From: a virus
Taxonomy: Duplodnaviria > Heunggongvirae > Uroviricota > Caudoviricetes
Virus record (IMG/VR): IMGVR_UViG_2778260994_000001
Reading direction: 5' to 3' (one strand)
Length of the DNA stretch: 64,000 nucleotides
Shown piece after piece: positions 23,861 to 60,024 of the stretch (within the stretch, counting starts at the first letter, position 1; every line of letters starts with the position of its first letter). The notes beneath the pieces are model-generated. The model searched no databases, was not told the DNA's origin, and worked only from the letters and a program-made list of their open reading frames with translations. The position numbers and the translations under genes are program-made.

Positions 23861-23989
23861 AGCGCCCCTACAAAAAAGAAAAGCCACCAGCGGCGGCTTA
23901 GCAATACAACAAAAGGTAGCGCCCGGTACTCAGACTGTGCCGTCCATGGAATATTTGAAAAGGGATCCATCCGTACCGGGCATGTGATG

Positions 23990-24048: not shown

Positions 24049-24609
24049 TTAGTGCATAATGTTTGCCATCTCATAGGCGTCAGCCAGCAACTCCATCTCT
24101 GACTTGTTCAGCAAGGTGAATTCTTTCTTGCCTCCAACCACACCATCGGCATGAACAGGGACCAGCCAGGGATATTTTTCTCTTACTTCAGCCGGTGCTG
24201 CATGCTGGTGGTGCCATCTACAAAGGGGCAATTGCTTTTTGTGACAACCCGGCGCGGTACGACCGGAGATATGGTGCAAAGATACCTCTTCAGATATTAC
24301 TCCATGCATGTAGCAGGCAATGCAGGGGAGAGCGCCAAGAGCACTGGCGATGCTCCGTTCCTCCGCTGTCGGTGTTCGCCCCTTCAAGCCACGAGATTTT
24401 ATCTTTACCGCACTTTTCCGCGTTTTGCTGGCTGGTGGGCGCTCTTTCTGTTTAGCGATACGGCGGTCGATAGAATCCCGCATTTTCTGATATTGCGATT
24501 CTCGCCAGGCGGGGTCAGCCAACTTTTCCCGTTGCCGAGCGATCGCTCGTTCTCTGGCTGCCTTCTGCCACTCGCGGCGCTGTTCAAGTTTTTGTTCGAT
24601 TGTTTTCAT
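24049..24609 (-). CDS. ref: Ref, HNH-type endonuclease (recombination enhancement function)
   Basis: MKTIEQKLEQRREWQKA... with HNH-like Cys/His cluster (CIACYMHG...HHISGR...CHKK...CRWHHQ); 186 aa from ATG at 24609. Confidence 0.8.
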   Translation of the reverse strand: MKTIEQKLEQRREWQKAARERAIARQREKLADPAWRESQYQKMRDSIDRRIAKQKERPPASKTRKSAVKIKSRGLKGRTPTAEERSIASALGALPCIACYMHGVISEEVSLHHISGRTAPGCHKKQLPLCRWHHQHAAPAEVREKYPWLVPVHADGVVGGKKEFTLLNKSEMELLADAYEMANIMH

Positions 24610-24614
24610 ATGGC

Positions 24615-24640
24615 AAAAAAAAGGCGGCCTAATGGCCGCC
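24615..24640 (-). terminator. Terminator-like hairpin with U8 tract just upstream of the ref start codon
   Basis: Minus strand GGCGGCC-ATTA-GGCCGCC then TTTTTTTT, ending 5 nt before the ATG. Confidence 0.45.
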
Positions 24641-24707
24641 AATGATGTCAAGGAGTGAAGTAATGGCAACGTCTTCGTAGTTGACAAAAACTGCGGCTCA
24701 ATTATAG

Positions 24708-24724
24708 CAATCAATTAGAGCAAT
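24708..24724 (-). promoter_or_regulatory. C1 operator-like site upstream of ref
   Basis: Core attagagcaat with overlapping half-site attatagcaat. Confidence 0.65.
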
Positions 24725-24854
24725 GGTAGATATTTTGTTTATCGCGAATCACATTTTTTCACTTCAGTACCTGTGTGCTATACTCCTTCTTGATTGATTG
24801 GATGCGGAATACAAACCCGCTCTTTTGTGCATCCTGGCTCCTTGCCAGGCTTTT

Positions 24855-25166
24855 TTATTTCATCATGGAAGCTGTTAACGCTTTGGATCTTGCTGAACTG
24901 ATTGAAAGGGCATTGTTTACCTTACCCAGGAGTTCGCCAAATTCCGCCATCACTCTAGTAAGCCCGCGCCGCGCTTCCTCCTCCGTTGCATTCATCACAA
25001 AATGTTCAGCGCTCCGCATGCTTTTAACGGGGAACGCAACAGATATCGAGTCGATATCAGGCATCCTATCGCTCAATTTTACGGTGACAATGACAGATGG
25101 TGACTGAATTTGAGAGCTTACAGACAGCACCACATATTTTCCGTCTATTTTGAAATCCTTCCGCAT
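24855..25166 (-). CDS. cra: Cra-like protein (cre-associated)
   Basis: 103 aa between cre and ref; position only. Confidence 0.45.
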   Translation of the reverse strand: MRKDFKIDGKYVVLSVSSQIQSPSVIVTVKLSDRMPDIDSISVAFPVKSMRSAEHFVMNATEEEARRGLTRVMAEFGELLGKVNNALSISSARSKALTASMMK

Positions 25167-25182
25167 GCGTCACCATAAATAT

Positions 25183-25199
25183 CAAATAATTAGAGCAAT
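25183..25199 (-). promoter_or_regulatory. C1 operator-like site upstream of cra
   Basis: Core attagagcaat. Confidence 0.6.
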
Positions 25200-59339: not shown

Positions 59340-60007
59340 ACTTGCCGGGTACGTCTCCGGCGAGGGCTTCCACCTCCGTATGCTTTTCGGCGCACCGCGC
59401 CCTGGCTGCAATTCGGTAACAGGGGATGCATAACCCTGGCTTCCAGCGTGATTAGCGCTTTCAGCATGACGGGATATACCCGTAAATTCGTGGAACTGTA
59501 CCCAAAGTGCTGTTAAGCACCGCTGTTACGCTGAAAAGAAGACGCAACAGGAAAGGACGCTGACCAACAGATGGCCCCTTCTCGTTCATCTGGTTAATCA
59601 CACCAGCGCCCTTACCTGTTGTGCCTCCCCGTTCCCTAATACACAGACGGGGACACTCTGCGGTCGATTTTTTGACGGGGGACGACTCATACCCCGTGGC
59701 GTCTGGCTTCTTAGGCCGCTACCATCATCAGATCATCGTTTGCATTTACTTTAATGGTCAGTTTCTAAAACGCCGCAAAGTCGCTAACCATGACGAAAAC
59801 CCTGAAAAAAACGCCCACCCGAAGATGGGCAAACTGGAAGCTCGTAACGCACTTCGGTGTTGCCACTTAGGCGTATGGTCAACCTGGCAACTCGGCGTCA
59901 TGAGGGGGAAGGAGTCACTACCCCGCCATACTTGCCGCCGCGCCTGTCGCGGCTAACAGCTAAATCGCTCTATAAATCACGATTCATTGAGGCGATATTA
60001 CACTAAT

Positions 60008-60024
60008 AAATTTATTAGAGCAAT
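60008..60024 (-). promoter_or_regulatory. C1 operator, perfect 17/17, with overlapping divergent partner (59997-60013, 15/17)
   Basis: aaatttattagagcaat; overlaps the dmt stop and precedes a 600-nt leader with tRNAs. Confidence 0.75.

Follow-up and report, generated by a model that had tools for sequence, protein, structure and literature searches.

In Escherichia coli, translation of the rnd gene (RNase D) needs a natural leader hairpin that is followed by eight uridines (U8). In phage P1, the leader of the nuclease gene ref reportedly contains an attenuator, which Windle, Laufer and Hays are said to have proposed in 1988 (J Bacteriol 170:4881) and, as the title of their paper has it, to have probed by deletions. 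Here we describe the ref leader in a 64,000-nt stretch of viral DNA (IMG/VR virus record IMGVR_UViG_2778260994_000001; Caudoviricetes), called the window in the following, where ref, its leader and its operator occupy positions 24,049 to 24,724 on the minus strand and a GC-only hairpin followed by U8 stands directly before the ref start codon. Ref lowers lysogenisation 40-fold and sensitises P1 lysogens to ciprofloxacin (PMC4713147), and controls on its expression are therefore of practical interest. The level of ref mRNA increases 73-fold upon inactivation of the C1 repressor, and H-NS binds the 5' region of ref at the sequence CGATAAA (Ronayne et al. 2016, PMC4713147). The P1 record AF234172 annotates the C1 operator Oref and the promoters P2ref and P1ref at this locus, and annotates no terminator.

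The hairpin as re-derived from the sequence agreed to the base with a sequence-only reading that preceded this analysis and had placed a GC-only 7-bp stem plus U8 (24615-24640) between the operator and the ref ATG, 5 nt from the latter; GCCAT was the sole spacer. A consensus scan returned the identical hairpin, which was present in both the minimum free energy (MFE) and the centroid fold of the RNA and reached -15.0 kcal/mol on its own. In the whole window, only this one site showed a GC-only 7-bp stem with a loop of 3-8 nt and T8 within 2 nt. A chance hairpin was ruled out: shuffling the window 200 times produced 0 such sites, and 1.4e-5 were expected analytically. The element showed the hallmarks of intrinsic terminators, i.e. 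a GC-rich stem of ~5-14 bp with a loop of 3-8 nt, a U-tract right after the stem, and covariation, and it lies where an attenuator would be expected, between the P2ref -10 element (24706-24701) and the ref ATG (24609). No other minus-strand terminator was detected between c8 and ref in the window. We consider it probable (about 80%) that the element is an intrinsic (Rho-independent) terminator in the ref leader which acts as a transcription attenuator. The stretch from the operator to the ATG was 100% identical in the window, P1 and P7, so that anything shown for P1 applies to the window as well. To judge from the 1988 title, the hairpin with U8 is the ref leader attenuator already reported for P1, so that this analysis confirms a known feature instead of making a discovery. 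The attenuation proposed in the sequence-only reading was supported by this title as well as by compensatory stem changes in three clades. Beyond that reading, we found that the feature had already been published, as far as the title tells, that a second promoter is annotated, and that a candidate antiterminator exists.

The ref homologues and their upstream DNA were gathered from phage, plasmid, viral-contig and genome collections, which yielded 37 distinct leaders in the P1 clade and 23 leaders for a pairing analysis across three clades. Within the P1 clade only 2 of the 14 stem positions varied, both from C to T at the stem base with a resulting G.U pair, compared to 29 of 59 other leader positions (Fisher p = 0.03). 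Three of the four loop positions varied. The second clade is formed by Cronobacter phage JK004 and four relatives, with Ref proteins 64-67% identical to those of the P1 clade. Their layout consists of a C1-type operator over TATAAT, a leader, the hairpin GACGGTC-TTCG-GACCGTC, T8, and 10-13 nt lacking a Shine-Dalgarno (SD) sequence before an ATG or GTG. The third clade is represented by L008, a phage-plasmid of Pantoea with a near-consensus operator and the hairpin GCCGCC-TCCG-GGCGGC followed by T7. Across the 23 leaders, standard pairs filled 99.4% of the pair cells and both sides had changed in three of the seven pairs; when the 3' partner was slid by 1-3 columns as a control, only 15-71% were paired. 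The T-run measured 7-10 nt in every leader of all three clades, and RNAalifold returned the terminator helix as the sole consensus structure of the leader. In all three clades the hairpin was also the first same-strand terminator after the co-directional upstream genes. The terminator was present in all three lineages with a C1-type operator, and no such leader terminator was found in the Ref lineages without one (D6, Buttiauxella, Klebsiella, Vibrio and other types), some of which have an ordinary SD. Owing to the compensatory stem changes and the co-occurrence with C1-type operators, we conclude that selection maintains the hairpin and U-tract as a functional intrinsic terminator and that this terminator is linked to ref genes under C1 control.

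The D6-type ref genes (L003 1190-1215; L164, L165, L176-L187) showed a palindrome of ~26 bp, TTAGAAAATCAATTTTGAATATCTAA, in place of the C1 operator, which presumably represents the operator of a different repressor. These genes had no leader terminator, and some of them, including D6 itself, showed a normal SD (AAGAGG).

In the attenuation model, polymerase would either initiate at P2ref (~24694), which C1 represses, or come in from the co-directional genes cre and c8 by read-through. The Oref sequence ATTGCTCTAATTGATTG differs from the C1 operator consensus ATTGCTCTAATAAATTT at 3 positions, and C1-operator-like sites were frequent in the window (15 observed vs 0.29 expected). The TATAAT of P2ref was invariant among the P1-clade leaders and was also found in the JK004 clade; its spacing predicts a start near G24694. 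The GC-only hairpin and U8 would follow after ~55 nt of transcribed leader, and a majority of the transcripts would then terminate ~5 nt ahead of the ref AUG, with the read-through fraction serving as ref mRNA. The 73-fold induction of ref after C1 inactivation implies that productive transcripts do pass. During transcription, the leader segment GUUGCCA would pair first with the U and 5' arm at 24641-24635, which may aid read-through. The read-through mRNA would be translated weakly because it has no SD, and its translation would perhaps depend on the adjacent U8. The net effect would be a second brake besides repression by C1 and H-NS, by which a host-damaging nuclease is kept low.

The sequence-only reading had allowed the transcripts only two options, read-through of the element or a start within it, and the latter option fits P1ref, the predicted promoter annotated in AF234172. 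Of the 12 consensus positions P1ref matched 9; it also has a TG upstream but no operator of its own. Its predicted start (~24637-24633) falls inside the 5' arm of the stem, and RNA folded from there formed a 4-bp hairpin at most. Transcripts from P1ref could therefore not form the 7-bp stem and would escape termination, which makes the promoter a possible low-level bypass of the terminator and a possible further source of ref mRNA. This leads to the best-surviving alternative, in which the hairpin would be the terminator of the cre-c8 unit that insulates ref, the productive mRNA would come from P1ref, and P2ref transcripts would mostly be dead ends. The lack of another minus-strand terminator from c8 to ref, observed likewise in JK004 and in L008, and the promoter features of P1ref described above agree with such an insulator. 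However, the terminator is preceded by a C1 operator and promoter in each of three independent clades, and this speaks for a role of the transcripts that start there. Moreover, the strong response of ref to C1 inactivation is not explained by an operator-less promoter, and P1ref lacks conservation in the JK004 clade. We consider this alternative unlikely.

A second alternative concerns translation instead of transcription. The ATG of ref is not preceded by an SD: within the 20 nt ahead of it, pairing with the anti-SD at the 3' tail of the 16S rRNA reached -1.5 kcal/mol at best, compared to a median of -4.7 kcal/mol among 45 long open reading frames (ORFs) of the window, and ref ranked 38th of the 45. 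This bore out the earlier statement that the hairpin leaves no room for an SD. The unusual translation initiation suggested there was a fair inference, as the SD is missing in both the P1 and the JK004 clades. The start-codon position was conserved between clades (MKTIEQ, MELTEQ, VKLTEE, VILTEQ), with an SD in none. The U-tract is located 5-13 nt before the start codon in the P1 and JK004 clades and ~90 nt before it in L008. In a synthetic system, a terminator-derived U8 placed beside the ribosome-binding site raised a reporter from 31 to about 100 units (~3-fold) in a proximity-dependent manner (PMC3575828, which cites Zhang and Deutscher 1992). On the model of the E. coli rnd leader, U8, joined by the hairpin in the role of a stable 5' cap, might recruit the 30S subunit via S1 to the SD-less AUG, with little termination taking place; the U7-10 tracts close to SD-less start codons in two clades would suit such an element. 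On the other hand, a GC-only 7-bp stem with a perfect U8 is a textbook strong terminator, and compensatory changes have kept the stem itself and not only the U-tract. The distant U-tract of L008 and the SD that was also present in the reporter construct (PMC3575828) speak against it as well, and the 1988 title, for its part, names an attenuator. As a replacement for termination, we regard a translation element as distinctly unlikely. A translational role of U8 on read-through ref mRNA is nevertheless plausible by analogy, and it could well add to termination rather than replace it.

The candidate antiterminator is formed by GUUGCCA, located 21-26 nt upstream of the terminator 5' arm, and UGGCGGC. 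When the 3' arm was withheld from a transcript starting at 24694, as a mimic of nascent RNA, this pairing reached a probability of 0.95-1.0. Homology of the corresponding segments between clades was set by the anchor CGAAGAC-GUUGCCAU vs CGAAAGACAACUGUCAU, and the leaders were realigned from CGAAGAC. The JK004-clade counterpart ACUGUCA pairs with UGACGGU, so that the two inter-clade differences in the terminator arm have complementary counterparts in the leader segment, and one P1-clade variant retained an antiterminator pair via a C-to-U change. In 14 leaders of two clades, which effectively represent one clade split, 92.8% of the cells were paired and compensatory changes occurred in two pairs. 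The pairing fits, with limited evidence, the word 'antiterminator' that also appears in the 1988 title. A second possible antiterminator strand, GAGCCGC (24699-24693), was seen in folds of longer transcripts and was rejected, since its variation in the P1 clade was uncompensated and it was missing from the JK004 clade. The 5' leader hairpin listed in Table 1 was found neither in the JK004 and Pantoea clades nor in the consensus structure, and RNAalifold found no second helix conserved across clades. The only Rfam match, of suhB/mmgR-like type, reached 22.9 bits where the gathering score is 41; this sub-threshold match was attributed to the terminator shape and rejected.

One subgroup of P1-clade leaders (L058, L062, L064, L072-L074, L076, L081, L086, L089) showed the variant CATCATAGGCGGCC, a T-to-A change beside the stem, and in addition one extra nucleotide behind the T-run (TTTTGACCAT). 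These changes create an ORF of 9 codons with its TAG overlapping the stem base, and the A-U pair of the candidate antiterminator is lost.

Several observations weigh against attenuation as described here, or against parts of it. The terminator of L008 lies ~90 nt from its ATG, and proximity to the start codon is thus not universal. A literature search found no P1 start-site or term-seq study that maps transcript ends. The promoter P1ref is a prediction and was not conserved outside the P1 clade, as judged by comparison with the JK004 clade. The covariation of the antiterminator comes down to essentially one clade split, with the helix derived from the same sequences, and within the P1 clade the pairing was weakened or broken in L047, L066, L058 and the TAG variants. 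With the 3' arm present, the terminator won at equilibrium with a probability of ~1, and the antiterminator can therefore only delay it unless stabilised; alone it would relieve little. Finally, no sensor was found in the leader in the form of a conserved upstream ORF, an Rfam family or a second conserved helix. A trans-acting factor is possible as the sensing device.

Just 5' of the terminator we found a CU-rich motif, represented by CTCCTTGA in the P1-clade leaders and by C(C)TCC(C/T)TGA in those of JK004 and its relatives. Apart from the hairpin this was the leader segment best conserved between the clades, and it may act as the TGn of P1ref or lie in the antiterminator loop. The motif also enters a further alternative, in which the terminated leader of ~79 nt would be a small RNA that appears only in the absence of active C1, with the CU-rich, anti-SD-like stretch pairing to ribosome-binding sites and the U8 tail binding Hfq. 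A 5' hairpin, an unpaired and well conserved CU-rich stretch and a terminator with U8 would indeed suit a small RNA. Complementary sites were not enriched in the window, however, with 43 8-mer matches compared to 36 +/- 14 in shuffled sequence (59 of 200 shuffles reached or exceeded the observed number). No Rfam family was matched, and the two other possible roles of the motif compete with this one; a regulatory RNA as the main function is highly improbable. We would give hardly more credit to a combined module, in which the same 26 nt would set the amount of ref mRNA, set its translation with U8 replacing the SD, and release a C1-controlled regulatory RNA of ~79 nt. The heptamer AAGGAGU upstream of P2ref (24782-24788, minus strand) is a perfect 7-nt complement of ACUCCUU in the leader (24650-24656). 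Both would be present together only in read-through transcripts from c8, and their pairing was not conserved in the JK004 clade.

Least probable of all is ribosome-mediated attenuation through a short upstream ORF from the UUG at 24669 covering the 5' arm, or an N-terminally extended Ref from this in-frame UUG, which we rejected although the codon is TTG, GTG or ATG among P1-clade variants, the frame is open from 24669 into ref in the window, the subgroup mentioned above has its 9-codon ORF, and short ORFs in JK004, L091 and L092 end in a TGA overlapping the stem, because no candidate start is preceded by an SD, starts are not conserved (L090 and L163 of the JK004 clade have ATA and ATT instead), the frame is lost through the hairpin by T-runs of 7, 8, 9 or 10 nt, 1-nt indels and an out-of-frame ATG variant, and the conserved TGA also belongs to the base-paired region.

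Table 1. Features of the ref locus in the window and their coordinates.
Feature	Position	Strand	Remarks
H-NS site CGATAAA	24744-24738	minus	sequence present in window; site reported in ref 5' region (PMC4713147)
C1 repressor operator Oref ATTGCTCTAATTGATTG	24724-24708	minus	annotated as Oref in P1 AF234172; identical in P1
P2ref extended -10 TGcTATAAT	24709-24701	minus	annotated as P2ref in AF234172; overlapped by Oref
5' leader hairpin GCAGUUUUUGU / ACGAAGAC..UGC	24694-24666	minus	in MFE and centroid folds; P1 clade only
Candidate antiterminator strand GUUGCCA	24670-24664	minus	pairs with UGGCGGC 24641-24635 (U + 5' arm); overlaps P1ref -35 TTGCCA
P1ref, predicted sigma 70 promoter	24669-24642	minus	TTGCCA, 16 nt, CATCAT, upstream TG; from annotation of AF234172 and scan
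CU-rich motif CACUCCUUGA	24657-24648	minus	just 5' of terminator; single-stranded in predicted folds
P1ref -10 CATCAT, preceded by TG	24647-24642	minus	just before hairpin
Terminator stem-loop GGCGGCC-AUUA-GGCCGCC	24640-24623	minus	seven G-C pairs, 4-nt loop
U8 tract	24622-24615	minus	directly after stem; terminator tail, possibly U-rich ribosome-recruiting element
Spacer GCCAU and ref AUG	24614-24607	minus	spacer 24614-24610, AUG 24609-24607; no SD
ref gene	24049..24609	minus	186 aa, RecA-dependent HNH nuclease; annotated as ref in P1, P7, RCS47
c8	25166-24855	minus	co-directional with ref
cre	26248-25217	minus	co-directional with ref

The window represents a P1-like phage. Over cre-c8-ref it showed 98.5% identity to RCS47 and JL22 and 92.7% identity to P1 (1.25-kb query covering the ref coding region, c8 and the end of cre, ~7% of which differs). 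The ref ATG opens a 186-codon ORF that ends at 24049, and the encoded Ref was 95% identical to P1 Ref. The gene order cre-c8-ref-mat was common to the window and P1, which places the locus with the P1 ref region. The mat gene of the window (minus strand, ~23865-23970) has one base fewer than P1 in a G-run ~100 nt into the gene and is thereby split into a frame of 46 codons (from 23970) and one of 222 codons (23887-23219); this reflects either a frameshifted gene or a sequencing error. Between the cre stop and the c8 ATG (25183-25199, minus strand) the sequence ATTGCTCTAATTATTTG forms a perfect C1 operator core, where P1 has ATTGCTATAATTATTTG, the annotated -10 element of Pc8 (TATAAT). From this replacement, c8 of the window may be C1-controlled, or Pc8 may be weakened.

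The plus strand of the c8-ref spacer carries a terminator-like hairpin, CCTGGC-TCCTT-GCCAGG followed by T6 (24833-24856), which is preceded by a promoter-like TTTTCA-17-TATACT with TG (24756-24784); a plus-strand transcript of ~70 nt could arise from this region (24756-24856). As the hairpin has no U-tail on the minus strand, it is not a c8 terminator. Hairpins near C1 operators were also seen elsewhere in the window. One of them lies at 59806-60024 (minus strand), where ~170 nt of GC-rich leader separate a bivalent C1 operator (60024-59997) from a hairpin that resembles a strong terminator, GTTTGCCC-ATCTTC-GGGTGGGC with T7 (from 59834, minus strand). The tRNA genes at 59339-59189 and 57342-57270 are located downstream of this element, and no Rfam family matched it. 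Another, at 45785-45850, is a 9-bp palindrome, AACGTGATG..CATCACGTT, which is terminator-like on the minus strand and is enclosed by two C1 operators in inverted orientation (45850-45834, minus strand; 45785-45801, plus strand). The sites near 45.8 kb and 60.0 kb were not taken as evidence for a general operator-hairpin design, since they differ from ref in layout.

Our additions to the published feature are modest and comparative. They comprise the compensatory conservation of the terminator in three Ref lineages, where it travels with C1-type operators, as well as a specific candidate antiterminator pairing and the indication that a leader-peptide mechanism is unlikely.

Compared to known systems, the ref leader resembles the E. 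coli trp, his and pyrBI attenuators in the position of its intrinsic terminator, downstream of the promoter and ahead of the first codon; an upstream segment is also predicted to pair with the 5' arm of this terminator in a mutually exclusive candidate structure. It differs from them in having neither a conserved leader peptide nor an SD for one, in showing no recognised ligand- or protein-binding domain, and in an antiterminator that is far weaker than the terminator. With the E. coli rnd leader and the U8 enhancers it shares a terminator-like hairpin and U8 just upstream of the start codon, whereas these systems also have the SD that ref lacks. The P1 ref region, with Oref, P2ref, P1ref and the 1988 attenuator, is base for base the same from operator to ATG in the window, P1 and P7, and it is flanked by the same genes cre, c8, ref and mat. 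The element itself is without difference from that of P1, and the window adds an operator-like site upstream of c8.

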